NCBI GenBank assembly: GCA_000004985.1
Contig: GG738899.1
DNA from: Naegleria gruberi
Lineage: Eukaryota
Strand: one strand, 5' to 3'
Length of the DNA: 64,000 nucleotides
How positions within the stretch are numbered: the stretch's first letter is position 1; each line of letters opens with the position of its first letter. This document shows, in pieces, positions 2 to 46,057 of the stretch. The notes beneath the pieces are model-generated. The model was not told the DNA's origin, did no database searches, and saw nothing but the letters and a program-made list of their open reading frames with translations. A program made the translations under genes and the position numbers.

Positions 2-2467
2 GCTATCAAAGCTCTGTTTAATAGACCTGTTCATATTGCGATAGATCATTCAAATGGTGATCTGTATGTCACTGATCAGGGAAATCATGCTATCCGAAAG
101 ATTACTTGGGATAAGACCATCAGTACTGTTGCAGGCATAGGCAGATTTGGTACAGATTCCTTTATTGATGGAGTTCCTGCTACAAAGGTCAGTTTGGATA
201 CACCCATCAAGTGTGTGATCGTGGCAGGTGAACTGTACATTCAAGAAAATAGAGGAATTCTTAGAGTTGGTAAAGATGGTACCATTTCTATAGTTATTGA
301 CATCAAGAAGCACTTTTACTATGCAAAGCAATTCGAATTGTTGACATTCGACATTTCCCAAGATGGATCCATTGTTTACGTTGCCATGAGCTTTGATAAT
401 TCAGTTTTTATCAAGCAGTATCATGAAAGTAATGAAACTTGGACTCATGTAATGGGTACAGAAAATTCTGAAAGCAGTTGTCTCTCTCTTCCCAATTGGG
501 AAGAAGGTTATTATTTGAATCCTTCCAATTATACACTCTGCCATGTTACAGATATGATATTTACAAAAGATGGAGCGATGATTCTCATAGACACTTATTC
601 CAAAAATTATACTGAGATTACTAATTCTGATGTTCCAATGGATATTCAACCAATGTCTGCAATTCATCGTTTAGAACAAGATGGAACGCTTTCTGTATTA
701 ATGACCTCAACTAGAGGCTATACATTCGGTGGACTGGGGGTTTATCCAAATGGAGATTCAATAATTTATACTGTCCAAGAAGAAAATGTGAAGAAAATTA
801 TTGAAACTCATATTACTTGTAGAGAATATTTGAAACTGTCCAGTGAAAGAAGGAACTGTGTACCAGTATGTGACACCAGACCAGCTGATGATCCAAAGGT
901 CTGTGGTGGACATGGCACTTGTCAAGATACTAATAAGTGTGTATGTAATGATGGTTTCAATCCTGAAACATTTTGTAAATCTCCAATGTGTTTTGGAGAT
1001 TTTTCAGAAACTGGAGGATGTTCTGGTCATGGCAAATGCGTTGATTATGATAAATGTTCATGCAATTATGGCTATTGGGGGGACAATTGTCAATATCCAT
1101 GGAGTTTTACAATTATCATTATTGGTTGTATCATTTTGGTTGTAGCTTTAATGTGTGAGTTCAGTACTATCTTTGGTTGTTACATTTACTTGGACAACAA
1201 GAGGAAACATAAAGTGTTGGAGGGTGAACATTCAGACATGCTGGACGACTACAAGAGTGCTCAACAAGATGTTGCCGATATGAGGGGAATAGTTAAAGTG
1301 GTAGAATTTACAAATGCCATTTCCAGTAATCAAAGGTCCACCTTCAATATTAATGGAGAAAGCTATCCATGTTCGTTTGAGGCAAGAAAAAGGTACTTAC
1401 ATATTGAACCCAATGATTTTGGTGTTAAAACTGTGCTATGCAACAATTTAAGGCCATTACTAGTTTACAGCAAAATCTGGCAATTTACAATAGAGAGAAA
1501 TGATCAGATTGCAAGTATTCGTAATGTTGCTTACTTTGTAAATAGTTTAAAATCCAAACCATCCGAGTCCAAATCATCTGAGTATGAAGCTTATCCATAC
1601 CTATTTGTGACATTGAAACACTATCCACTTAGTAACCTTTCCATAAGGACTGAAAAAAGAATTTTACAAAAACTGTTTACAAAAGAAGGAATGAGAAAGG
1701 CATGTCTTAGTATGGCAAAAGCAATAGCTCGATTCCACAATACTTTGGGCTTAATCCATTGCGATATTGCTCTCAAAAATTTCGTAATTGAAGAACTTGG
1801 AAATGGAGAATTAGTTTTCATTTTGATAGATTTTGATGCAGCAAGATTCATCAAGCCAGAAGATGCCACAAAAATGTTACAGAACAATAAGCGAGTATCA
1901 GTGGATAGTTCACAAGGAATCCAACCGCTCTCAGACAATTCCCTAGATGAATATACTATTTCACATTTAACAGGAAACGAGGATTACCAAAATACGACAC
2001 AGAGGGATCTTTATGCCTATGGGGCAACCATTGAAGAACTTTACGATATTTTCCTTTTTCAAATTACAAACATAATTAATGAACTCACTGATATGATTTC
2101 TAATTCCAAGTTTACTGAAGAAAAAGAACGTTTAACAATGGAGATTAAGGCATTTGAAGAAGTAATTCCAAATCACTCTGAAATGTTGAACTATTTCGAA
2201 AGCAATGTGAAGCCAATTGTTGCAAAATTGAAAAATCATGAGTATCAAACAGACTACAAATCAGAAATGTATCTCATTGAACTATTTTCAGATGAAACAT
2301 TTTCTCAAACTCTAAAGAATGAACAACAAGTTTCACCTTTGTCTCACAATACAGCATCAGTCATAACTCCACATCAAAATCCAACACAAACAACAACAAC
2401 TTTAAGCTCAAATCAACCAGAAGAGATTGATGATGAACAAAGTATTCTTTTGCGCAATAGAAGATAA
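2..2467 (+). CDS. Receptor-like transmembrane protein, 5'-truncated at the window edge. Extracellular NHL repeats, two EGF-like modules, one TM helix, and an atypical intracellular kinase-like domain of aminoglycoside-phosphotransferase type (HCDIALKN...IDFDAA)
   Basis: The frame is open from nt 2 and continuous with ORF 194..2467. The translation starts mid-repeat with NHL consensus (AIDHSNGDLYVTDQGNHAIRKI). EGF-like Cys spacing is CxCxxGFxxxxC (CGGHGTCQDTNKCVCNDGF, CSGHGKCVDYDKCSCNYGYWGDNC). The hydrophobic stretch FTIIIIGCIILVVALMC follows. The C-terminal HxDxxxxN...DFD motif marks a protein-kinase-like fold but lacks the HRD/DFG of canonical kinases. Confidence 0.6.
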   Translation, partial: AIKALFNRPVHIAIDHSNGDLYVTDQGNHAIRKITWDKTISTVAGIGRFGTDSFIDGVPATKVSLDTPIKCVIVAGELYIQENRGILRVGKDGTISIVIDIKKHFYYAKQFELLTFDISQDGSIVYVAMSFDNSVFIKQYHESNETWTHVMGTENSESSCLSLPNWEEGYYLNPSNYTLCHVTDMIFTKDGAMILIDTYSKNYTEITNSDVPMDIQPMSAIHRLEQDGTLSVLMTSTRGYTFGGLGVYPNGDSIIYTVQEENVKKIIETHITCREYLKLSSERRNCVPVCDTRPADDPKVCGGHGTCQDTNKCVCNDGFNPETFCKSPMCFGDFSETGGCSGHGKCVDYDKCSCNYGYWGDNCQYPWSFTIIIIGCIILVVALMCEFSTIFGCYIYLDNKRKHKVLEGEHSDMLDDYKSAQQDVADMRGIVKVVEFTNAISSNQRSTFNINGESYPCSFEARKRYLHIEPNDFGVKTVLCNNLRPLLVYSKIWQFTIERNDQIASIRNVAYFVNSLKSKPSESKSSEYEAYPYLFVTLKHYPLSNLSIRTEKRILQKLFTKEGMRKACLSMAKAIARFHNTLGLIHCDIALKNFVIEELGNGELVFILIDFDAARFIKPEDATKMLQNNKRVSVDSSQGIQPLSDNSLDEYTISHLTGNEDYQNTTQRDLYAYGATIEELYDIFLFQITNIINELTDMISNSKFTEEKERLTMEIKAFEEVIPNHSEMLNYFESNVKPIVAKLKNHEYQTDYKSEMYLIELFSDETFSQTLKNEQQVSPLSHNTASVITPHQNPTQTTTTLSSNQPEEIDDEQSILLRNRR

Positions 2468-2650
2468 TCAGTTATTAGTTTAAAATCGTTTGATTTCTTA
2501 CAAAATTATCTTGCATAAAATTCAATTATACAAATTGAAATTACAATATTTTGATGTTAGCACAATCTTGTTGACTAACTCAAAGAATATTCAACCTTCC
2601 TTATTGTAATCCAACTCTTCCCAATTTGTAAATATTCATTAATAAGTACG

Positions 2651-4451
2651 ATGATGGAGCAAATAAGAAACACATCCTTCCAAAACTTGCCTATTTCTCT
2701 CTCACTACTGCCGAATTTCAAAAAAATCAACACCTTTCGATTCAAAAAACCATTCGAAACCTTTGGTCCCATCATATCTCTAAACTTTAAAAAAACTAAA
2801 CCAGCATGTCTTCACTGCCCACAACTCATAATCAACACCACACAAAATACTACAATAGAAAGTCTTCCACCGAGTCCAACTAATTCGTCCAACTCTAAAC
2901 GAAAGAGTTTCGAATTAAAATTCAATCCACATGATTACGTTCTAGTTTTCGAACACGTCATGAATGATAAAGAATGTAAAGATCTTTTCCATGAATATTT
3001 GACGAAACATGCAAAATCTGCTGAATTGTTGGATTTTCTTAATGATTATCGTGAATATGTGGTTTATTACTTTAGTTTGAATTTGAGGGCGAAACCTTCG
3101 TGTTTGATAAAGGACGTTTGGAAGAAAGTGCCAGAGAGAAAGACTGAACCTGAGAAGGAAAGCGAAGAAGTGTTGGTTATTCGAAAGAATAAGAAATTAG
3201 ACGATTTTCATGCAATGGCAAGGAATTTAATGGAAAAATATATTATCGAGGGTTCACAACATGAAATTAATATTAGTTCTTGTAGGAAAGATATCATACA
3301 GAGATGGAATAACATTAATAACTTTTTGATATCTGACAGTATTAGGACGACAGTTCAAGGATTGACACAAGTTATTGATTTGTTGAATCCTGAAACCTTG
3401 TTCAGAAGTTCAAGTAATTTAGTTCGAGTTGATTTGGAATATGATCAATTTCCTCGTTTTGTTAGAAGTGATTTAGTTTATCAATTCCTAAAAAGGAAAG
3501 GTGAAGGATTTACTCGATCTGTGGCTTTGAATGTTTCACAGGGATACAGATTAGATATTAGATTTAAACCTCACGAGTTGGTTTCCAAGAAAATTGACGA
3601 CAAGATGATTTATTTCGGTAAGTTGTTGAATATTCGAAATGTTTAATGATTTTGTGAAATAATTAATAGGTTACACCCTCCTACAAGATACACCTGACTG
3701 GGAATGTATTCATGACAAGAATGAATCTCAAGTTTTCATCTCCAAAACCAATTACACATTCGGTCTGAATTCGAATAATTTGAAACTAAAGAAACTTACC
3801 TTCTCAATTCCTTACAGTTTAGAGAACTTTTGGGCAATCTACGTAGATACAGAACTATACACGAAATACAAAATATTCCAAACGAAAAACTACAAATTTC
3901 GTCAATATATTGAACCAAATTCAGGTAAAACCGATCAGTCAACTGGAGAATTATTGGATAATCAACTGGCAATGGCTCAAGTTCAATCCTCACTTCGTCT
4001 CGTTCCATTTACCAAATCTAGACAATATTCAGTGATTACTACAGTGATTTATGAACCTCTTCTTGATTGTATCGTTCAAATTTCACCAACTTATAGAGAT
4101 CCAAATGTTGGAAATGAAAATGTGTTGGTTATTGGACTTTCGTACAGTTTTTTCTTTAGAATGAGAGATGGCTCGACTAGAGTAGTTTTGATTACGTATT
4201 CTGATATGAATTTTAATATTCCTTCCTTTGTAGAATCTCGAGCTCTGGTATTTAGTGTCAAAAATTTCAAAAAGGGAATTGTCAAAGCTTTGGATGAATT
4301 GACAGGAAAAGACAAGTCAAAAGTAATTGAATACAAGGATGATCAAGAACGTCCTTGGAATATCATCATGGAGGTCAATAAGAACATGTTCCCAAATCGA
4401 TCTTGGTTTAAGGAATGGAATGAACAAATGGAAGAAAAAGAAGAGCAATAA
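2651..4451 (+). CDS. RGS-domain protein with a C-terminal START/Bet-v1-like lipid-binding-type domain. Two exons: join(2651..3617,3670..4451)
   Basis: The ORFs at 2651..3646 and 3780..4451 are joined by a 52-nt intron (GTAAGT at 3618, AATAG acceptor ending 3669) that keeps the frame: ...MIYFG|YTLLQDTPDWECIHD.... An RGS-like motif is present (LVFEHVMNDKECKDLFHEYLTKHAKSAELLDFLNDYREY). Confidence 0.55.
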
Positions 4452-11490: not shown

Positions 11491-11609
11491 ATATAAATAA
11501 AAATATTAGAAATTAATTTATTAAATTTAAATGTTATTATAATTCCAATAATTCCTAATTATTTAATTGATATTTATTTAATTAATAAATAAAATATTTC
11601 AAAAATAAT

Positions 11610-13756: not shown

Positions 13757-16700
13757 TTATTTAAAATATGGATATTTGAGTAATTGTCTAGCTTGTGGTC
13801 TTGTTGCGCTATCTTTACCAACCATTTCAATAACGAGTTCAATAAGCTCAGTTGAGTAAATATTTGGTTTTTGCATATTTTCTGTAAGGATTTGTTTAAC
13901 TTGAGAACTGTCTTTAGAAAAATGGAGATGACTGATGGCAGTTGTAGTGTCATGTGTCATTAATTGATAAATAGTTACACCCAAACTGTAAACATCTGTG
14001 TTAAAACCATAACTTGCTCCCAAACCTAGTTCTGGACTCTGTGAAAATTGTTAACTTTCGAATAGCAATATACTAAACTTACCAAAAACATTGGAGTTCC
14101 ACAATAACTGTTATTTGCAGAAAGTGAATTATCCCTCGCCAATCCGAAATCTGCCAAAACTACCTGAATGTAATCTTGAGTCAATTCCTTAATAAAAATA
14201 TTCGATTCCTTAACATCTCTGTGAATCAGTTTCTTCTCTTCATGAATATATTCTAAAGCATTCAACATTTGGAACAATACACTTTTCAACAAGGTTTCGG
14301 ATATTTGAACTTTAAGTAAACTTGTCAAATCTCCCTTGTCATAATATTCCATCTCAATAACCAATAATTCATTCTTATCAACGAACATGTCATTCACCTT
14401 AATAATATTTGGATGTGCCATGTTCAATAATTGTAAACCTTCTTTCATGAATTGGTTTAGTTCAGAATAGGATTGGAATTTGATAGCTTTTAGAGCTTTG
14501 AAAGAATTGGTTTTGACATCGAAAGCTCTAAAGACAGATCCGAAACCTCCACTTCCAATCTTTACCATGTCCTTGAAACGACTCAATGGATCAAAAGAAG
14601 AAGAACTTGAGCTAGTTCCATTTGTGGAAGACGAAACTGATTGGAATTCCATGGTTGGTCGGAAGAATATGGAAGCTTCAGATTCGGGAAAATCGGTTGC
14701 TGTTATATCATTCTTGGATTCTATCATTTCCAAGTTGAGGTTTTCATTTGATTTCTTTTTTTTCCTAAAATAGAAAATTAGAATGATAATCAAAATTACA
14801 ATAATGACAATTAATAGAAAGACTGAAAGGATGGGAACTAGAGTTGCTATCAGAACTACTTGAGTTTCTTGTTGCTTTGAACTTTCTGGTGAGATTCGTA
14901 ATTGAGAACATTCGTTTCCAGAATAGTTTAAAGTACAGTTACATTGATTAGGAGAAACACATTGTCCTCTTTCTATGCCATTACATGCATCACTTGAATT
15001 CTTACCATAACAAATTGGAAGGCAATTCTCAAAATTTGAAATGAAATATCCAGTTGGACAGTTGACTGAAATTTTGTAAACAGTTCTAGCATTTGCAAAA
15101 AATATTTCACCAGTAGATTCACTAACAACAATCGAATTAGGATTACTATAAAAAACCATAATAATATCAACCTTTCCTTCCTTGTTTAGTTTCTTCAATC
15201 TTCCATTCTCAGCAAAATAAACTATTCCATTAATATTCGAAACATAAAGTGTACTAACAGCCTGTTGAGGGATATAAACAGTCGTTACAATTCCATTGCT
15301 ATCAATTTTCCTTATACCAACCGTATCTACATAATAGATTGAATCGGATAAACTATCGTAGCTTAATGAAACAGCACTTGAAATGATAAAATCAGTTGCT
15401 AGGGATCCGTCTGAGGAACGAGTGCCTCCACCAGCTACTTTTGAAATGGTATTATTTGAGGCCAATCTTATCAAGATATTATCTGAAAAGAATAAATAAC
15501 CACCTTCCTTATATGGTACAATTAATTTTGGACGTGGAATGTCTGTTAATCGATTGTTGACAACAGAACTTCCAGATCCAAACAAATCAAACGTTATCGT
15601 ATCAGTGAATGCTCGTACAATACAACGACACTGGTAGAAATTCTTGAGAAAAGGTTTTCAGGCATAATTGAGTCAACTACCACAACACTGCCTTGGAGTT
15701 TGGCTAATTTTAAAAATGCATGGGGCAATCCGGAGTGCCCTGTCTGTAGGGTATTGTCATTGTATTGTTCTGTGATTTCCATAATCTGCAAAGATATATT
15801 GGTTTGCAACTTTAGTAATTCCTGAAATTCCAGAAAGTTTTGTTTTCCTATTGTCAAACTCTGAGTTGTAATAACCTCCCAAACAAGGACCAATCAGATT
15901 TTTAACTCCCTTGCTTTGTAGATTGTATTGGAGTACTAGATTTTCACTTTGACTATATAAAATTAAATTATTTCCTGACATGGCTAAATTGGCCGAAAGG
16001 TCAACAAATTGTGGATCTTCACCATTGTATTCTCTGTAAACAGCTCCATAACCAGCTATTGTACTTAGTTTAGATGTTGTGTCGTTATACTTTCTTATTA
16101 ATTGATTTCCAGAATCGCAAATAATAAGTGTTCCATTTTGGTCAACTGTAAACGCAGTTGGATATCTTAATTTGTTATCATCAAAACCTGGTACGGTTCC
16201 AATCTGCGTGTTGCCGGCATTAGTAAGGTATCCATCTTCTGAATTGGTGTAAAACGACATTCCCTTATAGCGTCCCATATTTGTTACCTTGTATGGAAAA
16301 GTTGTAAGATATTGGAAAATATTTTCTATTATGATTGCAACAGAATTACCATCTGTAACAAATATACTTGTTTGTGATTGAATAGTTTCTACATAGATTG
16401 AGGTTGGTGCCTTAAAAAGATAATCAATATTCGAAACTATTCCATTCGAAACTATTCTAATTCTTCTATTTCCAGTATCTGAAATATAGAGAATACCATT
16501 ATTGTAGAATAAACCATTTGGATTGTTAAGCTGACAATTTATGGCCAAACCTTCTCCATTATATCCAGCAGTTCCATTTCCAGCTACTCTATAAACAGTA
16601 TCTGAGCTAATATTATAACGAATTACTCTATGATTATTCGAATCTGATATATACAATGATTGATAACTACTATCCATTACCAATGATTGAGGAAAATTCA

Positions 16701-18009
16701 GTAAAGTCTTGGTTCCTGCCATTCCATCAATGTCCGATAAAAACCCCGCTAATCCGGAATCTGCCCCAACCACTATTTTCAAAGTTTTGGTAGAAATGTC
16801 CAATTTCAATACTCGATTTGCATAACTTTCACTCATATAAATATTTCCCTCCAAATCTACAGCAATTCCTCTACATGCTGTCAATAGTTGAGTTTCGGCC
16901 ATGTAGACGAAACCTTGTCCTAAAGATTGAATTCTTTCAGTATTTGGGGAGAAACCAGCAAAGTTGTGCACATAGTTTTGTTCAATCACTCTAATTTTTT
17001 GATTATTTTTTTCTAAAAAGTAAACATTTCCATCAGACGAAACTTCAATACTTGTTGGATTGTAAAGAAAAAATTCAGTATCAAAGTGTTGCATTCCATT
17101 TCCTGCAATTGTTGTGATAGAACCATCTGTTGTTATCTTTCTAATACGATTATTTGCAGAATCTGCAAAGTAAACTTCATTATTCGAAACTCTAATGGCC
17201 TGTGGATAGTTTAGTTTAGTTTCAGTAGCACGTTTTCCATCTACATCAAACCCACATCCATTGTATCCTGCAATTGTTTCCATTTGTCCATTAAAAACTC
17301 TTCTCAATTTGCAATTGAACGTGTCAGCAATATAAATTTCACCTGTAGTATTCGAAACATGGACAGAATGTGGATAATTCAACATGGATAATGTTGCCAC
17401 ACCATCCGAATAACCAGCAGTTCCATTTCCAGCAATTGTCGTAATATTATTCGTAACAAACGAAAGCTTTCGAATAATATGATTTTCTTCTTCAACAAAA
17501 TACAATTCTCCACCATTTCTCTCAACTACAAATAAACCTCTTGGATTTTTCAAATTTGTTACCAATGCATTTCCATCTCCATTCCAAGAATCAACAAAAG
17601 TTCCAGCAACAATTGTTACCTTACTCAACAGATCGGAAGTAAAATTAAAAATTTGCTTTCCAGTCGAAACATAGATCGTATCCAGGGAGCTGCCACTCAT
17701 TCGTATTGAAGTAATTGCACGGTAGTCATTTCCGTTTCTTGTTGAAATGACAGTTTGACTAGTGACATTTATGGCGGTCAATTGGGAATCGTGAAGAACA
17801 TAAAGTGTGTCAATGCCATTGAAGGACATGTCAAGGGGTTGATAGAGTTTCAAGTTTCTGGCATGTTGGGATTGTCCAATAAATTTGGAGAGTTTATATT
17901 CGAGGGGAAGATTTTGGCCTTGTGTAAAAATTGGCAGCAATAATAAAAATGTCAAAGTCACTACACAAAATATCAGATAATTTGGCAAGTGACAGATGGC
18001 GTGTAACAT
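13757..18009 (-). CDS. NHL-repeat receptor Ser/Thr(/Tyr) protein kinase: signal peptide, about 20 NHL repeats, two EGF-like modules, TM helix, canonical kinase domain. The gene model is interrupted by two frameshifts at about 15590-15760 (possible pseudogene or assembly error)
   Basis: ATG at 18009 gives signal peptide MLHAICHLPNYLIFCVVTLTFLLLLPIFTQG. ORF 15757..18141 is wall-to-wall NHL repeats and ends ...ADYGNHRTIQ followed by TGA. Skipping one nt after that stop gives an NHL-like +1 frame (DNTLQTGHSGLPHAFLKLAKLQGSVVVVDS...). A second shift enters ORF 14026..15585 (more NHL, EGF CxCxxxYSGNEC, TM VVLIATLVPILSVFLLIVIIVILIIILIF, kinase with HRDVKESN, DFGLA). A 44-nt intron at 14039..14082 (GTAAGT...CACAG) joins GTPMFL|SPELGLGASYGFNTDVYSLG. 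There is no GT dinucleotide around the first shift, so it cannot be an intron. Confidence 0.5.
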
Positions 18010-20554: not shown

Positions 20555-23500
20555 TTAAATATCTTGAGAGTTGATGATTTGAGAAGGTTGCGGTTCAATT
20601 TCAATTTCCTCAAATAAGCAATTATTGCACCATCTTTCAAATTTAACACATGAATCACAAATAAGAGATCCACAATCATGACATCTACGTACTGACTGAG
20701 TTCTGAAGTGACATGATTCACAGACAAATTGAGGGAAATGAGTGGAACAATTTTTACAAACTCCTTGAAATTCACATAAATTACAAATCTCCACTCCACA
20801 TTGATTACACTCATCAAGTGATTTTGTGTATCCTAAACAAATGTGGCATGGATAAATTGGATAGAAAAGTTCTGTAAAACAATCTATGCAATATAATTGA
20901 TGCCAACATGAATCACAAAACAACCTGAAACAATCACCACACTTATTAATTCCTCTCTCATGTCTACAATAGTTGCAACCTTGTTGTTCACAAATATCTG
21001 GATCACATTTACAAGTATTTGGAAAGCAATATCGTTCATTCTTCTTACAGGAGCATTTAAGGTTTGAGCAACTGGTTGTACAACGGCATCCTGTTACCTT
21101 AGTAAGCTTGGATTCTGAATTTGATTTCTTTCTTTTTTTCTCAATATTTGAGGTTTTAGAGAATTCTTGAATATTCGAAATGGCTGTGTTAACATCATCA
21201 AAAAATTTGTTTAAAATATTAAATAATCCAATTACATCAAAGAATGCACAATGACAATCCGCAACATTTCCCACTTGGAAATGTTCAATTAACATTTCTT
21301 CTTTGAATGCAGTTCTTCCACTACTCTCTTTTTTTGGTAATTTGTGATGTAGATCTTTGTGGCTTTTCATTAATTTCAAGGAATCTACGAAAACTATATT
21401 TTCAAACTTTGATTCTCTTTTCGGATAAAACTCTTTCTTAAATACTTTGAAATCAAGTATCTCACCATTGTGCGCAATTAAGAAAGTTTTCCCTTTAGTA
21501 TTACTAATAAAATCAATAATAAAATCAAGCTCCTTTTCAATGATTGGTTTGTCTCTTACATAATTCAAATTGATTCCAGTAATCTTTGTTGAATGATATG
21601 AAATTGATTTTGTTGGATTTACTAATCCATAAATTGATTCACCTGTTGCCATATTTAAAAAGCAATATTCTGTTATTTTTGGTGGATCATCATTTGTCCA
21701 AAATCCTGTTGTTTCAAAATCAAACAGAATATATTTGTCATCTCCAAAATCATGTTGAAATGGAAGACCCTTATTGTGTGTGTACAAATCATCATTGAAT
21801 AAAATTCTGGAAGCTCGTGGGATTGGTTCTGAAGGTCTAATTTTTTGATCTACTATTGATTTATCAACAGTATTTGTAATAAGTGTTAATAAATTATCAC
21901 TGTCCAATAGGTTGGAAGAATCTGACTGTTTGATTGATTTCAATAAAGCTTCAATCATTGACTGCTTTCCCTCTGAAAATGAATAATTATGAACGTTCAT
22001 TACATGTTTCAAAAATGATTTCAATCTCACAAAAGGTTGATTACATTCTTTACAAAGAATGTAAATATTATTCATGATGTTTTTTGAGTCAATGTTCGGT
22101 GGATTTTTACACATGAATTCTCGTATGAGCATAGTGTTTCTTTGAGGTTCAAATCCTTCTACAGCATCCAATATATAATCGAACATTTCAGTAAAACTAT
22201 TTTCTTTCTCTAATATTTGATCTTCTTCTTCCTCTGTAAGTTTTTTCTTATTCTTCTTCTTATACTTCTTTCTAGTTAATTCCTCATACTCCAATTCCAA
22301 ATCTATTTTTCCATAACAATTCGAATAACTCTCATTTCTCAAAACAAATGGTCCGTCACTTAGTTTTGCTTTTAACACTAACCAAACAGATCTATAACAG
22401 GAACAATAATCCATAAATGTTGGATATCTAATTTTGGATCTAACAATGCTGAAACAATGTTCTACCATTAATGTAGATAAGCTACAAGTACATAGCTCAA
22501 TTGTTGGAAATCTTGTCTTAAGCTCCTTTAAGGATTTTAATGTAATTATAATATGATCAAATAATTCATTATTTAAAGAAATATCGTTTGATTTTTGCCA
22601 TGGATTAATAAATTGAAAAACAGAGTCTAACAGAATCTCTTTTGCTTCCCAACAATAATCATTTTTGAAAATATAATAAATATCCTGCATTAGTTTTAAA
22701 TATTTAGAGACTGTTTGACAAGTAGTATTTTTTGATTTGGCCAAACCATCAATTAAATTAGTTTCTAATAATGCAAATACGGGATCCATAGCCATTTTGT
22801 CAGTAGGATAAATCACAGAATTAGGTAGCCAATCAGTTAAATTTGATTCAGATTTGGCAATCAATAACGTCTCAATTGAAAATGAAATGCCATCTATAGT
22901 CATGGTTTCATTTAGTAATCTATTTCGTAATCGTTTTAGTAGATGAGAGTAATCAAAGAAGTGAACAGTATTGGGAAATATTTTTTGTGTTTGGAAAAAT
23001 GTTAAATTTCCAGTCAATCCATCGCTACTGAAACCTACAACTTGGAAAGAATAATTATTTAACTGAATTCTTTCAAACTGTTCCTTAATCTTTTTTACTT
23101 GATCTTCCAAAAAATCTGCATGACTTGATTTTGTACAACCTGCAAACATTAAAGGGAAAGAAACACTTCCATCAATTGTAGTAGCAAAGAATTGGCAAAT
23201 GTGAGAAGCAATTTGGGAAGGTACAATTTCTTCTTTAGATTTGTATAGCTGATCAAAATCTTTTTCATTATAATCTGCAAATCCTATAACTTTTCCAGAA
23301 TCTTTAAGAACACATAACCCTCCTCTTATTTCTATTTCATCATATGAAATTATTATATTATTCGTAACTTTCTTTTTCTGTATAGATTTCAATAAAGATT
23401 GCAAATCTAAATCAGAGGTTTGCCCTGTAGATAATTTGGGAAGATAAGATTTCACTGTTGCTAGAGATGGAAGTAATAAATTCACTTCATCAAGGGCTGT

Positions 23501-24356: not shown

Positions 24357-24408
24357 TTTCTTCATGACATTTTTTTGTTTTTTACTCAAAAAAATGTCAT
24401 GAAGACCC
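24357..24408. repeat. Second subterminal hairpin inside the transposon, just upstream of the ORF start
   Basis: cttcatgacattttttt gttttttactc aaaaaaatgtcatgaag (17-bp perfect inverted repeat). Confidence 0.6.
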
Positions 24409-25007: not shown

Positions 25008-25194
25008 GATTGAGTTTTGTGAAACAGCTCATCAACGGAAATTGGTTGTATCCAATTAATTTTCAAAAAAGAAATCCATTATCTTACTGTAATCAATTAT
25101 TACAATCTAAAATTGATTACAAGTAGCATCTGATACCAACACCATTATAACCAAACTGTTGAAACTTGACGAAACTTTTTCATCTTTAAAAAAA

Positions 25195-26496
25195 ATGAAA
25201 AGATTCATTGGTGGTTTATTTCTCGTACTAATCTTTGCCACTGTTGCCATGTGTGCCAGCAGTGATGCATTCGACACCTTGAGTGATTACATCTCTCTCG
25301 CAGACTCCCTCAGAGGAGGTGGTTCTTCAGGAGGTGGAGGTGGCAGAGGAGGTGGATCCGGTGGTGGTGGCAGAGGAGGAGGTAGCTCTGGAAGTAGAGG
25401 AGGATCCAGCAGAGGAGGAAGTAGCTCTGGAAGATCAAGCACTGGAGGTAGATCAAGTACTGGTGGTAGATCAAGAAGTACTGGAGGAAGAGTTTCTGGA
25501 CCTGGTCGTTCACCAACTGGACCTTCTAGATCAATTGGTGCAACTAAAGGTGGAAGAGTTGGAGGAAGAGTTGGTGGAAGAGTTTCTGGACCAGGTAGAT
25601 CACCAACTGGACCTGCCAGATCAAGAGTTGGAAGAGTTTCTGGACCAGGACGTGCTCCAACATCTGTTTCCATTCAAAGAAATGCCATTCAAAGTAGAAT
25701 TAATGCTGCATTTGCTGGATTGAGTAAGGTTTCTACCAATCCTGCCTTGTCAGCTGCTCTTTCTAGATATGCCTCAATGAAAGCTGCTTCCTTGAAAGCT
25801 CCTTCAGTAACTAGTGCATTATTCTCCAAGACTCCATTGGGTCCAGTGAGTACTTTCTCAAAGGTCAACCCATCCTTGCCAACCAACAAGTTCACTAAAC
25901 CTGCAACTGTTGCCAATGTTCCTATTCCACAACCTCGTCCTGCCAATTTGGCCAAACCAGCAACTCAAACTGTTGCTGCTACTACCAGTGTCAAGAATCC
26001 AATTAATCCTGCTGGTGTCCAAAGAGTTGCTCGTAGTAAGCAACTTACTGGACCACAAGTAGCTCAAAAAGCAATTAAGGAATTAGCTGCTGCTGGTGTT
26101 ACTTTATCAGCCGATCCAAAACAAAGAATTGCTCAAATTGCTGACCAAATGGCCAACCCAGGATCATTACACAAATGTGCTGGTTATGTTGCTGCTGCTG
26201 TTGAAGCTGCTACAGGAGTCTCTCTCAGCAGACCTGCCTCAGCTGAAGCTAAGGATTACGGAACTACCATGGCCAAGGCTGGAATGAAGTCAATTCCAAA
26301 TAATAGCACTCCACAAATTGGTGATGTCAGAGTGATTGGACCATCTCCAACCAATGCCAAGTACAGTATTGGTCATATGGAGACCTATACTGGACCAAAG
26401 AGTGGATGGGTTTCTGATTATGCTCAAGGAGTATCTGCTGTTGATAATCCAAAGAGTGCTTATCATGGAGCTTCTGTTTCTACCTATCGTTTCTAA
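25195..26496 (+). CDS. Secreted protein with a Gly/Ser/Arg-rich repetitive region, an Ala/Pro/Ser-rich linker and a C-terminal CHAP-like (cysteine, histidine-dependent amidohydrolase/peptidase) domain
   Basis: Signal peptide MKRFIGGLFLVLIFATVAMCASS. Degenerate tandem peptide repeats (GGGSGGGGRGG..., RVSGPGRSPTGP x3). The C-terminal module HKCAGYVAAAVEAATG ... IGDVRVIGPS ... YSIGHMETYTG ... WVSDY has the Cys...G-D-V...G-H-hydrophobic spacing of CHAP/NlpC-P60 peptidoglycan hydrolases. No introns. Confidence 0.55.
   Translation: MKRFIGGLFLVLIFATVAMCASSDAFDTLSDYISLADSLRGGGSSGGGGGRGGGSGGGGRGGGSSGSRGGSSRGGSSSGRSSTGGRSSTGGRSRSTGGRVSGPGRSPTGPSRSIGATKGGRVGGRVGGRVSGPGRSPTGPARSRVGRVSGPGRAPTSVSIQRNAIQSRINAAFAGLSKVSTNPALSAALSRYASMKAASLKAPSVTSALFSKTPLGPVSTFSKVNPSLPTNKFTKPATVANVPIPQPRPANLAKPATQTVAATTSVKNPINPAGVQRVARSKQLTGPQVAQKAIKELAAAGVTLSADPKQRIAQIADQMANPGSLHKCAGYVAAAVEAATGVSLSRPASAEAKDYGTTMAKAGMKSIPNNSTPQIGDVRVIGPSPTNAKYSIGHMETYTGPKSGWVSDYAQGVSAVDNPKSAYHGASVSTYRF
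25310..25680. repeat. Coding low-complexity tandem repeat (GGN/AGA-rich, irregular 9-36-nt units)
   Basis: The repetitive ggtgg/aggagg/agagg runs generate the spurious overlapping ORFs seen in all frames of the ORF track at 25283..25723. Confidence 0.5.
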
Positions 26497-37638: not shown

Positions 37639-37651
37639 ATTTTAAAAACAC

Positions 37652-38959: not shown

Positions 38960-41110
38960 ATGTCTTCGGCTGCGAACAACAATACTAACAACAATAATTT
39001 TCCATATGGGAAGAGAATAACCCACACTTCCTCGACAGTAGGGTCTTCATCTAATGTTGGTTCTGCCTCATCAAATTCTAATAGTACTAGTATGAAGTTG
39101 GGTAATCTCTCACCAATACAACATTATAGGAGCTCAAATTTACATGGCACCTATTCTCACTCTGATATCAGAGGGGAACAAACAAAGAATATGGATGAAG
39201 TCATTTTGCATAATACTCAAACCTTGATGGATTACAATACTCCAAGGGGAGCCAATAACAATGATTTTGAATTGAAGAGTAATACTTCTCCACTTTCTTC
39301 AACATCAGAGAGTAGTGCCATTTTCAATAAGCCCTTGGATCAGTTGGTAAAGTGTTTTTTATGTTTCAACAAACCTTCATCACCTCACTTGTGCCCTTGC
39401 TGTTCCAAAATTGTCTGTTTGGGATGTGCAAAGAAGTGGATCTCGGAAAAGAGTTCTTGTCCAAACTGTAGATCACCCCTTTCAACAAGTCAATTAGTTA
39501 ATTGTAAATTTGTAACAGAGATTTCATCTGAGTTGGAAAAGCTTCAAACTCAAATCAAGAAGGACAAAACTATTGTTCCTTCAAGAGCAAGTTTAGTGAA
39601 TGAACATTGTTCTAGCCACGATCTTCCTCTGATTTATTATTGTGAAACTTGTAAGGAGCCAATCTGTTCTGATTGTGCAATGTTTGAGGAAAAACACAAA
39701 AATCACAAATTTAAAAAGGTCAATGAAGTTTACAAGGAATGTGTTGACATTGTAAAGGTAGAATCTGAAACTGTTAAAACTCGTCTGAAAGATTTGAACT
39801 CTCTCACACTGAGTATCGAAGAAAATATTAAGAGAATTACCAAAGCAAAGGAGGAAACCTTAAAAACAATCAATGAAACTGTCGAAGAAATGCGTACTAA
39901 TTTGGATTCACTCTATAAGAGCAAGCTTTCATCATTGGTCTCCCAAAAGAATATGATTATTGATGAAATTGCCATGTTAGAGAAGCTAACCAAAGAGTTG
40001 GGAAGACAAATTGAGACGAGTCCACAATGTGTTTTGATATCCAAAACTCCAGACATTGTCCGTGTAGTGGATGAAATCAATAAGAAGCCAACAGTTGCCT
40101 TCAATAAGATTGCTGTAACAGAAAGTTTCCCTAATGAAATTGTTCCACCATACGAAGGAGGCCAGTTTCGTATAGAAAACTATTCTGAATTACTTAAAAC
40201 AACCGAAGTTATTTATTCTGATCCAATCACTATTAATGGATTGCAATGGAGGTTGAAGGTTTATCCAAATGGTACAGGAGTTGCCAAGGGAGTTTTTATA
40301 TCTGTCTTTTTAGAAATGTTCAAAGGGTTGACTGAACCTAAAAAGTACCACTACAAGGTTGAAATGGTAAATAAGAGAGATACCTCAAAGAATATTGAAA
40401 GATCATTTGCCTCAATTTTCGAATCTGGAGAATGTTGGGGGTATAATAGATTCTATCGAGTTTCAGAGTTGGCTGGAAATGGGTTTATTGATGTAGATGA
40501 TGATGTTTTGAACTTGAATTTCTTTGTGAGACCAACATCATACTTTGAATTATGTTTAGAGCAAGCAAGATACATTAAAGACCTGGAAGATTTCAAAAAG
40601 ATGAATCCAATTACGAGTGTTACAACTGAGGAGGAAGTTGCAGAAGAGGCAAACAACCTATTGAAGGAGGAAGCATTCAACAATCCAAATCTCTCCCCAA
40701 TTGAAGAAACAGAGACTTATCAATTCCTTGTGGAAAGTGAGGAAACAATCGGCAATCACCAAGTTCAAGAGCAAGAAAATACTTCCTTAAAGATAGAAGA
40801 AGATAATTCTTTCTCGATCAATACCCAAATAACCCCTGAAGCTGATGAATCCATATCTCCAACAGTTTTTATCAATCCAATAGATGAAGATATTGTCACT
40901 ATCGAGCAAGACACAAGCATTATATCTTCTGATGGTAGCCAACTGGTTATTGAACAGGTTGAAGAAAAATCAGACAATAAGGAACCATCAACGGCAGGAT
41001 CTGTCTGGTCCAAGTCCCAACAAGAGCAAGCATTCTCATTGCCATCAGTTGGAAACCATAGTAGTGACACCGTTAATGTTTCAATATCATCAATAGAAAA
41101 CAGTGATTAG
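38960..41110 (+). CDS. TRIM37-like tripartite-motif protein: RING finger, B-box, coiled coil, MATH/TRAF domain, acidic C-terminus
   Basis: RING CFLCFNKPSSPHLCPCCSKIVCLGCAKKWISEKSSCPNCRS. B-box CSSHDLPLIYYCETCKEPICSDCAMFEEKHKNHKF. Long coiled coil. MATH domain QFRIENYSELLKTTEVIYSDPITINGLQWRLKVYPNG...FFVRP. Confidence 0.7.
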   Translation: MSSAANNNTNNNNFPYGKRITHTSSTVGSSSNVGSASSNSNSTSMKLGNLSPIQHYRSSNLHGTYSHSDIRGEQTKNMDEVILHNTQTLMDYNTPRGANNNDFELKSNTSPLSSTSESSAIFNKPLDQLVKCFLCFNKPSSPHLCPCCSKIVCLGCAKKWISEKSSCPNCRSPLSTSQLVNCKFVTEISSELEKLQTQIKKDKTIVPSRASLVNEHCSSHDLPLIYYCETCKEPICSDCAMFEEKHKNHKFKKVNEVYKECVDIVKVESETVKTRLKDLNSLTLSIEENIKRITKAKEETLKTINETVEEMRTNLDSLYKSKLSSLVSQKNMIIDEIAMLEKLTKELGRQIETSPQCVLISKTPDIVRVVDEINKKPTVAFNKIAVTESFPNEIVPPYEGGQFRIENYSELLKTTEVIYSDPITINGLQWRLKVYPNGTGVAKGVFISVFLEMFKGLTEPKKYHYKVEMVNKRDTSKNIERSFASIFESGECWGYNRFYRVSELAGNGFIDVDDDVLNLNFFVRPTSYFELCLEQARYIKDLEDFKKMNPITSVTTEEEVAEEANNLLKEEAFNNPNLSPIEETETYQFLVESEETIGNHQVQEQENTSLKIEEDNSFSINTQITPEADESISPTVFINPIDEDIVTIEQDTSIISSDGSQLVIEQVEEKSDNKEPSTAGSVWSKSQQEQAFSLPSVGNHSSDTVNVSISSIENSD

Positions 41111-41141
41111 CTCAAACAATTCAATCTCCGAACAGTAAAAA

Positions 41142-44100
41142 ATGCTTCCATTTCCGCACAGGTTGTCTTATTTGTGTTTGTTATTTCTCTTCTTGGTACT
41201 CTTTACCCACCACAGCAACACAACAAACACTTTCTATCCTGTTGAATATTCTATGGAAGCAATTGTTGGCAACAGTCCAAATAGTACTTGGCATGCTTTG
41301 GATTACTTCTTCAAAGTAATACCTTCTTTCCGAGAGCCTGATAGATTCATCTACGTTCATGCAGCCAGAATGGGTGATGGTAAATTCAGTCTTCATAAAT
41401 TTGATAAATTAGAAGGAAATTATCAAAATATTGCTCCTGATGTGATGTATTTCACACTTGTTGCTCACATAACAGATGACAACTCTGTCCATGATGTGCT
41501 TTATTATGCTACCGATTCTACATGTACTTTTTACAAGTATAACGAAACAAACAACTCAACCACAAAAATTGCTGGTAATGGAGTTTGTGATACAAATTGC
41601 AATGCACGTGAAAAGCAATATAATGAGAGTCTTTGCAGGGGTTATTTAATGTCTTATCCACATAAATTCAATAATGAGAGTGAATTGTCCTTCTACTTAT
41701 ATGGTGGACAAGAAATTTATCGATTGAAGAATAATTTGGTACAGATTGTGGCAGGTCATGGAAAATCAACTTCCTTAGAAGATCAACCAGCAACAAATGT
41801 TACATTGGGTATATCTGGAACTTGTACCAACTCACTTGGAGAGATTTATATACTACAAAATTATCGAGAAGGAACAGGATATTATATTAGAAAGATTTAT
41901 CCAAATGGTATAATTACTACTGTCCTTTCGTTGATGGGAAATTATGCATATTCTGGTACTTGTTTGTTTGATAGTACTGTTTACGAGGTGGAAAATAAGA
42001 AAATGGTGTTGGATAGGTTATATATTTACGAACATCCAGCATCTACTGTAACAAAGTTTGAGCTTACTTTCGAATATCCAAACACTGGAAAGCCAACATT
42101 GCTTAATTATTCACAAACTACTCTAATTGGAAAATATAACTCTTTTGTACAAGCTGGAGATGGTGGCAAAGCAATCGATGGCAGAATTAGTACTGTAAAT
42201 GTCGACGCTTTTGATGGATTTGTTGCACTTTCTGCTCTGGGTAATGTTAGATTTATTGACAATCAAACTGGAATAATATCAGAGGTACTTTCGGCAAAAG
42301 GACATGGATTTTACACAGCAATTAATAATTTCAAATTCATACCAAAGGATATTATTTACTCTTACAATGAGGGAAATCCAGAAATTCACATAGCTGACCA
42401 TGTCTCATCTTCAATTTTGAAATATTCTTTGAAGAGCAAGAGTATGGAGCCAATGAAAAAGTATTTTATTAGCGATTTGAATAATGCCCCATCTACAGCA
42501 AAACCCTACTCTATGGCATTGGATTCCTATTCTAATTTACTTGTTTCTAATGATTTAAGCTATTGGAGCCCCAACTTTTTAGTTAATATAACCAAACTTG
42601 GACCAAAGGTGATATTTGGACAAAACAAAAAAATTGATGATTCTATTAGTTTGGATTCCTCAATATTGGGTAGGCCCTATTCCAGTTTTTTCATTATGTA
42701 CAATCAGGCGTACTATAGCATAGTTTCAGACAGAGGCAACAATAGACTCTTGCTTATTGACTTTGATGGAAGGAATATTACAACAATAGCTAGTATGAAA
42801 GATGGTATCAATGGACCAACTGGTATTTGCTATCTGAGCGATAGAAGTATGGTGATATTTTCAGATACTGGTAATCACGTCTTGAGATATTACAATATTA
42901 GGACACGTGAATTGGGAATATTTGCTGGAAGATTAGGAAAGAAAGGATTTACTGAAGGTTCTTTGCTCAACGCAACATTCAATCAAGTAAGTTTTAAAAT
43001 GAAACCAAACTAATTATACTAACTCAAAACACAGCCTGTTGGATTATCTTGCACTTTAGATAAAATTCTTGTGGCTGATTCTCATAATCATGCAATCAGA
43101 TTAATCAATATATATGCAAGCACTGTGGAAACTATTGCAGGAACTGGTAAGTGTTTTTGTTACAAAATTAAAGATCTTAATGCTCAATTCAGGAGAGGAA
43201 GGTTTTAATGGAGATTTCTTGGTACCTTTGAGTACTACATTCAATAATCCAATGGGAGTTTGCTTCCAAGAGCGTAATATTATAGTTGCTGACACGAATA
43301 ATCATAGAGTTAGAGTTATTGATGTAAACAACAGATATGTTTCCACAATCGCAGGATCTTTTTTGGATGGAGATAGTGGAGATGAAGGATTGGCCTCAAA
43401 AAGTTTACTCAATTCACCTCATGATGTTCAATATGAAGATAATGTAGTTTATATTGCTGGTATGTTTCAGGTATTTTTTGTTCAAGCTTCTAATCATTTC
43501 AGATTCTGGAAATAACAAAATTAGAGTAATTAAAGACCAAACTATTAGTTCCTTAATAGGGAGAAGTGGTAATTCTGGATTTGAGGGAGATGGAGGTCCT
43601 GGTTTAACAGCAAAGCTCAATTTCCCAACAGGATTGAGTCTTTCTACGAAATATATTGTAATTTCTGATTCAAAGAATAATAGACTTAGATTTTATTTAA
43701 AAGAAGAAAAAACTATTTATACATTAGCGGGTGGTTTTGGAGATAATGGGCCATCTGAGAATGGTATTGGAACACCGTTCGGAGTTACAATCTCTCCAAA
43801 CAATGAAATTTATGTCTCAGATGTGTTGAATAATTTAATTAGACGAATTAAGAATGGAAAAATTACAACAGTAGCAGGTTCTGGAGCATATGGATATAAT
43901 GGCGATGATATTAGTGCATTGAAAGCTTCTTTGGCATCACCTTCGAACATTGTTGTCAATCCTCTAACAAATGACATTATATTTTCAGATACAAACAATC
44001 ATAGAATTCGAATAATTTACAGTGACGGAAATATATCTACATTGGCTGGAACTGGACAAGCAGGTTATAATGGTGATGGAGTGGCTTCAGCTACTCACCT

Positions 44101-46057
44101 CCACTCACCTTCTTTTATCAAATTCATTCCACCACAATTCGAAGTGATAGTTTTTTCTGATTCTGCAAATGGAAGAATACGAAAGATTAGCAAGGTGAAT
44201 AATATTTATATGGTATCGACAATTGCAGGACCTCCTGACTTGATTGGAGTACCTGAGGGATTATCAATTTCAAACGAAGGAGATGTATATTTTGCAGATT
44301 CAAAGAATTTAAGAATTTCAAAACTAATTCCAACCTGTCAACCAGGATATGTACTCAATTTGGAAAAAACAAAGTGTATTCCTATTTGCTATGATATTTC
44401 GGCCCTTGATCCTTCCTCTTGCTCCAGTCATGGAAGTTGCATCGATAGAAACAATTGCCAATGCATGAATGGATATACTGGAAATTCCTGTCAATATTCA
44501 ATCTGTCATGGAATTTCTGGACAAAATATTAGTGTTTGCTCATATTCGGGAACTTGTGTATCTCCAAATAAGTGTGAATGTGTTTCAGGCTATGCTGGAG
44601 ATCAGTGTGAATTACCTACTTGTTTTGGAAAAACTGGAAGAGAGGGTTGTAATAATCGTGGAAAGTGCCATGCTAGAAATTTTTGCATTTGTGAAAATGG
44701 TTATGCAGGAACAACGTGTGAAACAAATGTAATATTGATTGGCTCTCTAGTTGCGGTCTTTGCTGTTGCATTGATTATTATTGGCATTGTGGTGTTAATT
44801 TTAATATTTGTCTTTTCCAAATATAGGAAACAGAAGAAGATTATTGATACCGATCTTACACTGGATGAGAGATTGTTATCACAAACTGAATTGGAAATTA
44901 GCAATACAAGTTCTAATCGTACATATCATCAAGAAGAAGACAAGTTTATCATTCCAATTGAACAATTGAATATGGATAAACCAATTAAAGTAAGTATAGC
45001 AAAGGAAATCAACATTAACAAATTTAACCTATTTTACACAGAGACTTGGAGAAGGAGGAATGGGAAGCGTATTCATGACCAAATATAATGGAATGAAGAT
45101 TGCTGTCAAAGTATTTGATTTGAACAATTTTAACATTTCCGAAGATGATTTCAAGATTGAAGCAATTTTATTAAGCAAGCTTAGACATCCAAACATTATC
45201 AACTTCTATGGCATATCGTCTACACCTACAAAGAGATTCATAGCAATGGAGGTAAGTTTCAATTATTTCCACGAGTGAAAACTGAACTATTTGAAATATA
45301 ATCACAGTGTATGGACAAGAGCTTGGAGTCCATGATTAGTTCACTGCAAAAAGGTACCTCTACATGTTCTCTTAAAATGAAACTATCCATTATTCTAAAT
45401 GTAGTGAGTGGTATCAATTATTTACATCATTTGGAGCCTAATTTTATTATTCATAGGTATGTTTTCACAAAGTGGCCTTTCACAATTTCTTATTGAATTA
45501 TATATAGAGATTTAAAACCAGCAAATATTCTCTTGGATAAAAATGGAATTGCAAAATTGTGTGACTTTGGATTGGGAAGGGCATTATCTTCCAATACAGT
45601 ATCAGCAATCACTAGTAAGGTTGGAACATATAATTATATGTCGCCAGAACTTTTCTCAGATGATATAGAAAGAGGAGATGCTCGATCAATTGATATTTAC
45701 AGTTTAGCCATCATTCTATGGCAACTCGTATTCGAAATTATGGAACCATATCAAAGCTCGGATACAAAAGTTCTTCAAAAATTGAATTTGGAAAAACCAA
45801 AAACCTTTAACAGCACTTATCATTTCCACAAAAGTATCTGTGAAGAGAAATTGAGACCAATTATTCCATTTTCCACATTGGAGGAATGTCGTGAGTGGTG
45901 TGAAAAATTCCTAGACCAAGAACAAGCCAAGTACTATGAGGTAATTTATGAGATGAGTCAATTGATTGAACAATCGTGGAGTCATGAGCCAAGTAAGAGA
46001 CCAACAAGTGTTCAGATTTTGGAAAAGATTGAGGAATGGGATGAACGAGTTTTGTAA
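41142..46057 (+). CDS. NHL-repeat / EGF-like / TM receptor protein kinase, 7 exons. join(41142..42986,43035..43146,43193..43459,43503..44989,45042..45251,45308..45456,45508..46057)
   Basis: Six introns of 48, 46, 43, 52, 56 and 51 nt, all with GTAAGT/GTATGT donors and CAG/TAG acceptors; each removes in-frame stops and joins conserved motifs (IYIA|DSGNNKIRVI; IIH-R|DLKPANIL). Signal peptide, many NHL repeats, four EGF-like modules (CSSHGSCIDRNNCQCMNGYTGNSC ...), TM helix LIGSLVAVFAVALIIIGIVVLILIFVF. Kinase with GEGGMGSVF (G-loop), AVK, HRDLKPAN, DFGLG, YMSPEL. Confidence 0.7.

Follow-up and report, generated by a model that had tools for sequence, protein, structure and literature searches.

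Three diverged receptor-like genes join a shared NHL–EGF ectodomain to kinase-fold tails of apparently different lineages

Introduction

In Mycobacterium tuberculosis PknD, a six-bladed NHL propeller serves as the extracellular sensor of the kinase (PMC3322341, PMC1262709), and the same propeller mediates adhesion to laminin (PMC3322341). Receptor kinases beyond animals and plants are poorly charted. According to the main text of one survey, the diversity of protist transmembrane kinases arises through recombination between lineage-specific ectodomains and kinase domains, and about 40% of their ectodomains have no annotation; an ectodomain made of NHL and EGF modules is not mentioned in that text (PMC10463195). 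Here, we analyze a 64-kb stretch of Naegleria gruberi DNA (contig GG738899.1; hereafter the window), which contains three genes, termed genes 1–3, that each encode NHL repeats, EGF modules, a single transmembrane (TM) helix, and a kinase-fold tail. The initial annotation of the window had called an NHL ectodomain on a receptor kinase a non-textbook architecture. This holds for eukaryotes, but the bacterial kinase PknD has such a sensor (PMC3322341, PMC1262709). Our literature searches found no paper describing eukaryotic NHL–EGF receptor kinases; the searchable literature is incomplete, and such proteins may be present unremarked in automatic annotations.

Our preferred reading, to which we assign a probability of about 60%, is that genes 1–3 are old, diverged receptors with a common sensor cassette and with cytosolic domains of three lineages, assembled by domain shuffling. 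Recombination of the sensor cassette with different kinase domains would be the simplest history of the locus.

Results

The three genes share one ectodomain plan

Genes 1–3 present the same order of parts: NHL repeats, a Cys linker, one to three EGF modules, one TM helix, and a kinase-fold tail. Gene 1 (2–2467, plus strand) is cut at its 5′ end by the window start; its open frame of 821 codons is intronless inside the window, ends with the stop codon at 2465–2467, and matches the Pfam models NHL, EGF_2, and EGF_Teneurin. Gene 2 (13757–18009, minus strand) encodes a signal peptide, at least ten NHL repeats, the linker, one EGF module, a TM helix, and a Ser/Thr kinase, in a frame that is broken once. 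Gene 3 (41142–46057, plus strand) encodes a protein of 1539 residues with a signal peptide, at least ten NHL repeats, the linker, three EGF modules, a TM helix, and a tyrosine kinase-like (TKL-like) kinase. Its seven exons (41142–42986, 43035–43146, 43193–43459, 43503–44989, 45042–45251, 45308–45456, and 45508–46057) are separated by six canonical introns of 43–56 nt with GTAAGT or GTATGT donors, and the resulting coding sequence of 4620 nt has no internal stop. In the spliced proteins of genes 2 and 3, the N-termini are hydrophobic and, by inspection, resemble signal peptides. The initial annotation had proposed that at least three genes share an ectodomain plan, and we find all three in place, with domain scores far above chance.

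Pfam recognizes NHL repeats in gene 2 (7e-30), in two exons of gene 3 (2e-16 and 7e-9), and in gene 1 (8.5e-6), and gene 2 also matches TEN_NHL (3.6e-20, 72.7 bits). A repeat hidden Markov model (HMM) detects at least ten NHL-type blades each in genes 2 and 3, the ectodomains of which are homologous by blastp (4e-17). The blades probably form two or three six-bladed propellers. In gene 1, the propeller region (2–814, plus strand) contains a single NHL repeat that passes Pfam (17–100), and the region scores 3.4e-11 with the repeat HMM. The remaining blades are degenerate, and only their homology with the final blades of gene 3 identifies them (blastp 2.3e-21 over 410 residues).

The last blade is joined to the first EGF module in all three genes by a disulfide-rich linker with the pattern C-x2-G-[YWH]-x(9-10)-C-[LIV]-P-[IVM]-C, the Cys, Pro, and Gly columns of which are invariant in genes 1–3 and in two environmental proteins. 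Linker and EGF modules occupy 815–1090 in gene 1 (plus strand; linker 815–874, EGF modules 902–976 and 1019–1090), 14908–15063 in gene 2 (minus strand; linker 15063–15004, EGF module 14985–14908), and 44333–44719 in gene 3 (plus strand; linker 44333–44392, EGF modules 44420–44491, 44537–44608, and 44648–44719). Clear EGF modules, all of the tenascin type, thus number two, one, and three, respectively, and Pfam EGF_2 matches gene 1 (4.6e-7) and gene 3 (6e-12). The initial annotation had placed two to four EGF modules after the NHL repeats; the order stands, but the higher count is reached only if the Cys linker is taken as EGF-like. The TM helix follows at 1100–1192 in gene 1 (plus strand; WSFTIIIIGCIILVVALMCEFSTIFGCYIYL, read directly from the sequence), at 14767–14859 in gene 2 (minus strand), and at 44729–44815 in gene 3 (plus strand).

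As judged from the sequences, the collinear NHL–linker–EGF cassette, and not the kinase, is what defines the receptor family. From the order of parts, we infer a type I topology in which the propellers and the EGF stalk would lie outside the cell. Genes 2 and 3 show the layout of type I receptor Ser/Thr kinases, with a signal-peptide-like N-terminus, an ectodomain, one TM helix, and a C-terminal kinase with all catalytic motifs. The earlier proposal of differing intracellular domains on a common NHL/EGF ectodomain is likewise supported, and the three genes form a diverged group of receptor-like proteins of the type I, single-pass kind.

Protein identity among genes 1–3 is 23–30% (just 23–25% in the ectodomains), and a blastn comparison of the window with itself finds no DNA similarity between them; the sole internal DNA repeat that it reports is the EGF array of a GH44 gene. 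Therefore, genes 1–3 are not assembly duplicates, an explanation that had been raised together with the initial annotation and that these data rule out. The genes had also been described as clustered. The three members do lie within 46 kb, but on both strands and with 11 and 23 kb of unrelated genes in between; the arrangement is a loose neighborhood rather than a tandem array.

The GH44 glycoside hydrolase (PF12891, 7e-69) is encoded at 48564–51227 on the minus strand, and is secreted, with a hydrophobic C-terminus. It contains five tandem, near-identical EGF modules of the tenascin type (48735–49409), with DNA units 73–82% identical. Because these modules are of the same type as those of the receptor genes, the EGF module is reused locally.

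The kinases of genes 2 and 3 belong to apparently different lineages

Both kinases have GxGxxG, the β3 Lys, HRD(L/V)K..N, DFG, and SPE. In gene 2, the kinase domain (13757–14574, minus strand; Pfam Pkinase 7.1e-54, spliced) is interrupted by a clean 44-nt intron (14082–14039, GTAAGT..CACAG) and contains GSGGFGSV (14556–14533), ALKAIK (14496–14479), HRDVKESN (14223–14200), and DFG (14151–14143). In gene 3, the kinase domain (44984–46039, plus strand; Pfam Pkinase 7.2e-48, spliced, and PK_Tyr_Ser-Thr 3.9e-38) contains GEGGMGSV (45048–45071) and IAVKVF (45099–45116) in the N-lobe, and HRDLKPAN (45452–45526, across an intron), DFG (45563–45571), and SPE (45641–45649) in the C-lobe.

Among solved structures, the gene 3 kinase is best matched by CTR1 (2.7e-33, 118 bits) and then by SOBIR1, MAP3K12, and IRAK4, all TKL kinases, and a reconstructed Src–Abl ancestral tyrosine kinase ranks third among its structure matches. 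In Pfam, its score with the Tyr/TKL model PF07714 (131.7 bits) comes close to that with Pkinase, PF00069 (163.7 bits). The gene 2 kinase best matches the STE20-type kinases MST3/STK24, STK25, and MST4 (9e-31, 110 bits), and scores 183 bits with PF00069 versus 107 bits with PF07714, a clear preference for Pkinase. Bacterial Hanks-type kinases (P0126–P0138) reach up to 149 bits with it, above the 110 bits of MST3. The end of the gene 2 kinase, ...RPQARQLLKYPYF, carries an LLKYPYF motif typical of non-TKL Ser/Thr kinases, and the gene 3 kinase has an insert, LRPIIPF...C..WC, in common with the environmental protein P0123 and the environmental locus L002. Best matches and motifs suggest that the gene 3 kinase is TKL-like, and point to a generic Ser/Thr kinase (STE20-like or Hanks-like) in gene 2, clearly not of the gene 3 lineage. 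Like the gene 2 kinase, the NHL repeats have mainly bacterial best matches.

We favor domain shuffling because of the kinase scores on one common phmmer scale: just 56 bits between genes 2 and 3, 110 bits between gene 2 and MST3, 118 bits between gene 3 and CTR1, and 397 bits between gene 3 and P0123. The initial annotation had presented genes 2 and 3 as canonical HRD/DFG kinases; the motifs are indeed there, but with a mutual score of just 56 bits the two kinases appear to represent different lineages.

Alignments favor a highly diverged ePK-like domain in the gene 1 tail

The initial annotation had noted an HxDxxxxN...DFD module without a glycine loop in the tail of gene 1, and this observation is correct: the tail reads HCDIALKN (1757–1780) and IDFD (DFD at 1829–1837) and has no GxGxxG. 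The divergent domain, resembling the eukaryotic protein kinase (ePK) fold, spans 1358–2254 (plus strand, as are all motifs given here). Its motifs are, in order, a degenerate Gly loop, NGESYPCSF (1352–1378), the β3 Lys in FGVKTV (1418–1435), the αC Glu in FTIERND (1484–1504), the catalytic loop and DFD, and the subdomain IX sequence RDLYAYG (2003–2023).

Against an ePK profile built from 60 kinase domains, hhalign aligns residues 56–354 of the tail, which correspond to the whole kinase domain, with 97.5% probability (E 6.9e-12). In this alignment, HCDIALKN and IDFD fall on HRDLKPxN and DFG, and RDLYAYGATIEEL falls on DiYSlGvvlyEL, the D of which is an invariant column. The subdomain IX Asp and helix αF are specific to ePKs; kinases of the aminoglycoside phosphotransferase (APH) type are without them. 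The HMM made from the same 60 domains gives the tail 22.7 bits over αE, the catalytic loop, and DFG, and in a six-frame scan of the whole window the gene 1 tail (E 3.9e-6) is the sole match besides genes 2 and 3.

A MAFFT alignment of the tail with 21 kinases, made independently of hhalign, gives a similar picture. Gene 1 has the expected residue in the invariant columns for Lys (FGVK), His-x-Asp (HCD), Asn, Asp (DFD), and the subdomain IX Asp (RDLYAYG), and in the near-invariant columns for the first Gly of the Gly loop and the αC Glu. That Gly is the only one of the loop that is kept, and the APE column is empty; we find no plausible in-frame hidden intron in gene 1 that could conceal an APE motif. 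In sum, the β3 Lys, αC Glu, HxD Asp, catalytic Asn, DFx Asp, and subdomain IX Asp are retained, and the second and third Gly of GxGxxG, the HRD Arg (HCD), the DFG Gly (DFD), and APE are lost.

The tail stands nearly alone in the databases. Pfam assigns no family at threshold and does not report Pkinase even at E ≤ 10; the sub-threshold matches are Kdo (19.0 bits, cut-off 21.3) and Pkinase_fungal (13.2 bits over the catalytic loop). A word-indexed search of 5.8 billion clusters finds no relatives, and neither do tblastn-confirmed scans of metagenome and viral contigs. Full HMMER against 1.84 billion representatives returns two weak matches (E 1e-4 and 5e-4), both of which are ordinary ePKs with the catalytic loop HCDIKP(E/D)N. 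Among about 15 billion proteins, the tail has essentially no relatives. By phmmer against the PDB, nothing scores below E 0.01, and the top match, RPN6, was rejected as spurious. We conclude from the alignments that the tail probably belongs to the ePK superfamily and to none of its curated families.

The initial annotation had labeled this module as APH-type or atypical. A version of that idea, in which the tail is a module of the APH or atypical small-molecule-kinase type and the pseudokinase member of a single receptor-kinase family, draws on the spacing of HxDxxxxN...D-F-D, which fits Brenner's motif and is common to APH and choline kinases, on the missing Gly loop, on a weak similarity to capreomycin phosphotransferase in the PDB (E 0.66), and on the 19 bits of Kdo. 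We consider it very unlikely. Pfam APH (PF01636) is not reported on the tail even at E ≤ 10, the APH-type PDB match is no better than those to RSK2 and MKK6 (E 0.7–0.8), the only significant database matches are ePKs, and the alignment to ePKs runs over the full length and takes in the subdomain IX Asp and αF, which are specific to ePKs. The APH label is thus not sustained, and on these alignments the most fitting description of the tail is that of a strongly diverged ePK-like domain whose Gly loop is degenerate.

The pseudokinase part of the label is also unproven. By the Manning criterion, a pseudokinase lacks at least one of the VAIK Lys, the HRD Asp, and the DFG Asp. The alignment shows all three residues in gene 1, and by this rule its tail is not a pseudokinase. 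Under the refuting condition named with the initial annotation, the tail does line up as a kinase and has every catalytic residue. It may be either a kinase of low activity or atypical regulation, or a signaling scaffold or co-receptor. Its catalytic loop, D-I-A-L-K-N, has Ala at the Lys position of Ser/Thr kinases and a basic residue two positions on. Tyrosine kinases show the pattern HRDLAARN, which DIALKN recalls; we regard the likeness as a lead only, and not as a test. A bolder reading of the same residues, which we put forward tentatively and hold to be rather unlikely, is that, in a protist lineage with little sampling, a portable NHL–linker–EGF cassette was joined in separate events to three or more kinase-fold domains unrelated to one another, and that the gene 1 tail represents a new, active ePK-like family that would bind nucleotide without a Gly-rich loop.

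The opposite course is also conceivable: one ancestral NHL–EGF receptor kinase whose kinase domains diverged without shuffling, gene 1 being an extreme, catalytically dead product of decay. In accordance with this, all three tails have the ePK fold, the 23–25% identity of the ectodomains points to deep divergence everywhere, and gene 1 is without the Gly loop, HRD Arg, DFG Gly, and APE. However, on the common scoring scale the gene 2 kinase resembles human MST3 and bacterial Hanks kinases twice as closely as it resembles gene 3, the gene 3 kinase is much nearer to plant CTR1 than to gene 2, and gene 1 keeps every catalytic residue, which is unexpected under free decay. We therefore regard descent without shuffling as improbable and retain domain shuffling as the preferred history.

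Gene 2 contains one frame break

Between the two long open reading frames of gene 2, from 15757 to 15590, the frame is broken. At ~15753–15777 (minus strand), after ...FADYGNHRT, the coding sequence moves to another frame. Among the GT..AG combinations that keep the frame open, no canonical intron repairs the break; each candidate was rejected, as it either deletes a canonical NHL motif or needs poor splice sites. The original frame is back ~150 nt after the break, via an off-consensus intron or a second indel. A candidate 50-nt intron with an off-consensus donor (15569–15618, minus strand; GTACGA...GGAAG) would restore the downstream frame. At the site of the break, ACAAT forms a short direct repeat (ACAATACAAT, 15753–15777). 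Loss of one 5-nt repeat unit would explain the break (GNHRTIQY... is restored), and would fit either slippage during replication or an indel in the assembly.

Gene 2 is either a very young pseudogene or a gene that carries assembly errors. If it is a pseudogene, the window has only two functional family members. This is possible, although we think the odds lean the other way: no canonical intron mends the break after GNHRT, and the resumed frame contains a stop unless the GTACGA intron is used, but gene 2 is otherwise free of stops over ~1,390 codons, all of its kinase motifs are intact, and the direct repeat makes an indel of assembly or sequencing plausible.

Environmental relatives resemble gene 3

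With the membrane-proximal 600 residues of gene 3 as the query, the search for environmental homologs yields three informative relatives, P0123, P0124, and P0125, which are 51%, 41%, and 32% identical to gene 3 and score 397, 219, and 153 bits by phmmer, respectively. P0123 covers the juxtamembrane and kinase regions only. P0124 (locus L001, 1–4860, ENA ERZ929261) has NHL repeats, the linker, four EGF modules, a TM helix, and a TKL-like kinase. P0125 (locus L002, 1–6829, JGI 3300002220) has a signal peptide, about nine NHL repeats, the linker, one EGF module, a TM helix, and a kinase. Both contigs are short and eukaryote-like, with a GC content of 34–37%, similar to the window. In L002, the kinase is split directly downstream of the activation segment by an intron of 42 nt with a GTAAGT donor; in L001, the open reading frame (ORF) halts at a likely donor in the same kinase region. 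Near APE, the intron positions of gene 2 and of L001 and L002 are 0–2 codons apart and differ in phase, and we do not use them as evidence. A BTB gene lies upstream of the receptor gene in L002.

L001 and L002 probably derive from relatives of the source organism. Since proteins of the same architecture are encoded on both, a receptor of the gene 3 type exists in related organisms. P0123–P0125 resemble gene 3 only, and for the gene 2 type of kinase and for the gene 1 tail the searches turned up no counterpart. With whole gene 3 as the query, the top matches are bacterial NHL-repeat proteins, including the PknD-like kinases P0075 and P0095, which have the reverse domain order. Another match, the eukaryote-like P0001, has NHL repeats and about 15 EGF repeats and no kinase.

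P0001 bears on the question of whether the proteins are ligand-gated receptors at all. They could instead be mainly adhesion or matrix molecules of the tenascin/teneurin kind, with kinase tails that tune adhesion or phagocytosis. P0001, the closest eukaryote-like relative of the ectodomain, is free of a kinase, teneurin-type NHL and EGF models of Pfam match the ectodomains, the same type of EGF occurs on the secreted GH44 glycosidase encoded nearby, and the PknD propeller adheres to laminin (PMC3322341). However, the intact kinases of genes 2 and 3, with their full sets of motifs, imply a signaling output. We consider a mainly adhesive role unlikely, and note that adhesion and signaling are not mutually exclusive.

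Genomic neighborhood

The GC content of the window is 29–37% throughout, and the sequence is packed with ordinary eukaryotic genes, the introns of which are short (43–56 nt) and have GTAAGT or GTATGT donors. The window is nuclear DNA of a unicellular eukaryote. Its closest protein matches, at 31–51% identity, come from metagenome contigs; exact look-ups of three of its intronless proteins return no record, and megablast against phage records returns no match. Besides genes 1–3, the window encodes an ABC transporter-like ORF, a BAR-SH3 protein, dihydroxyacetone kinase, ArfGAP-BTB, ATG27, and RWD-Kelch-BTB proteins, an RGS protein, a RING-B-box-MATH (TRAF-like) protein, a UDP-glycosyltransferase, the GH44 enzyme, and a DUF4116 repeat protein.

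The RING-B-box-MATH gene (TRAF/TRIM37-like; 38960–41110, plus strand) is separated from the gene 3 start codon by 31 nt. Because the spacing is only 31 nt, the promoter of gene 3 must overlap this gene.

Two further ORFs lie between genes 2 and 3. The first, of 1223 residues (20555–24226, minus strand), contains a TNP-like RNase H N-terminal domain of the P-element/THAP9-type transposases (PF21787), an exonuclease-like region, and a Cys-rich C-terminus, and a 47-nt palindrome is located just upstream (24359–24405). This ORF may represent a DNA transposon, either domesticated or active. The second (25159–26496, plus strand) looks secreted, with long Gly/Ser/Arg-rich repeats and a globular C-terminal part, coincides with a local rise of the GC content to 0.37, and has no match in Pfam.

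The DUF4116 repeat protein (1e-46; ORF 53811–55046, minus strand) ends with ...ECGSEGVVFKVFNKDKRQLTSIKFK, which resembles a kinase Gly loop and β3 strand. This kinase-like end may continue past an intron; the kinase HMM scan picked up no exon downstream of the ORF.

Discussion

Several points weigh against three receptors assembled by shuffling. Going by sequence alone, genes 2 and 3 could still have arisen by very fast divergence from a single ancestral receptor kinase. Gene 2, with its frame break, may be dead. For gene 1, the per-column confidence of hhalign is low in the N-lobe, where the Lys and Glu are assigned. The initial annotation had suggested AlphaFold models of the gene 1 C-terminal domain. 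AlphaFold2 with a multiple sequence alignment (MSA) of kinases gives a predicted template-modeling score (pTM) of 0.68 and a predicted local distance difference test (pLDDT) score of 85–93 in the C-lobe, and the structural neighbors of the model include IRAK3 and NFR5. However, the MSA consists of ordinary kinases and biases the model toward the kinase fold, and we take the model as corroboration only; without an MSA, the pLDDT is 35 and no usable model results.

If the preferred reading is correct, the propellers would bind an extracellular ligand or surface and act as the sensor, like that of PknD. Ligand binding would alter the oligomerization of the receptor, and the kinases of genes 2 and 3 would trans-phosphorylate and then signal. 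Gene 1 would act as an atypical kinase or as a non-catalytic partner.

One ectodomain plan wired to what appear to be three kinase lineages within 46 kb provides material on the assembly of receptors by domain shuffling. The orphan tail of gene 1 is the most unusual element of the locus and a test case for a kinase without a Gly-rich loop. The locus extends the catalog of receptor kinases and does not overturn current ideas; we regard it as a tidy example of domain shuffling and not as a new type of system.

Four groups of described proteins invite comparison. The oomycete and plant leucine-rich-repeat receptor-like kinases and the amoebozoan transmembrane kinases follow the same logic, in that a lineage-specific ectodomain is joined, in type I orientation, to a TKL-like or other Ser/Thr kinase. 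Like the receptor Ser/Thr kinases of animals, they differ from genes 1–3 in the ectodomain. HER3, IRAK3, and the plant proteins NFR5 and BIR2, which are receptor pseudokinases or atypical kinases, resemble gene 1 in having a divergent kinase-fold tail and relatives that are active kinases. In contrast to them, gene 1 keeps the Lys, Glu, Asp, Asn, and Asp, its sequence does not indicate catalytic loss, and its tail has no detectable sequence family.

Teneurins and tenascin-like proteins are single-pass proteins with the same NHL blades and tenascin-type EGF modules, consistent with the Pfam TEN_NHL and EGF_Teneurin matches. However, teneurins are type II proteins in which EGF modules precede the NHL repeats, and they have a YD shell, a toxin-like C-terminus, and no kinase, none of which applies here; besides the NHL and EGF models, Pfam matches no model of a teneurin region.

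PknD and the bacterial Hanks-type kinases with NHL sensors share with genes 1–3 the path from an NHL sensor through one TM helix to a cytosolic Ser/Thr kinase, and the bacterial NHL repeats are 30–35% identical to those of the genes described here. In the bacterial proteins (PknD, P0075, and P0095), the kinase is N-terminal and the propeller C-terminal, whereas here the order runs from NHL repeats through the TM helix to the kinase. PknD lacks the EGF stalk and the signal peptide and has just one six-bladed propeller, whereas the genes of this locus are eukaryotic and intron-containing and have at least ten blades. The NHL–EGF receptors may accordingly be viewed as a eukaryotic counterpart of the bacterial PknD sensor, with inverted topology.

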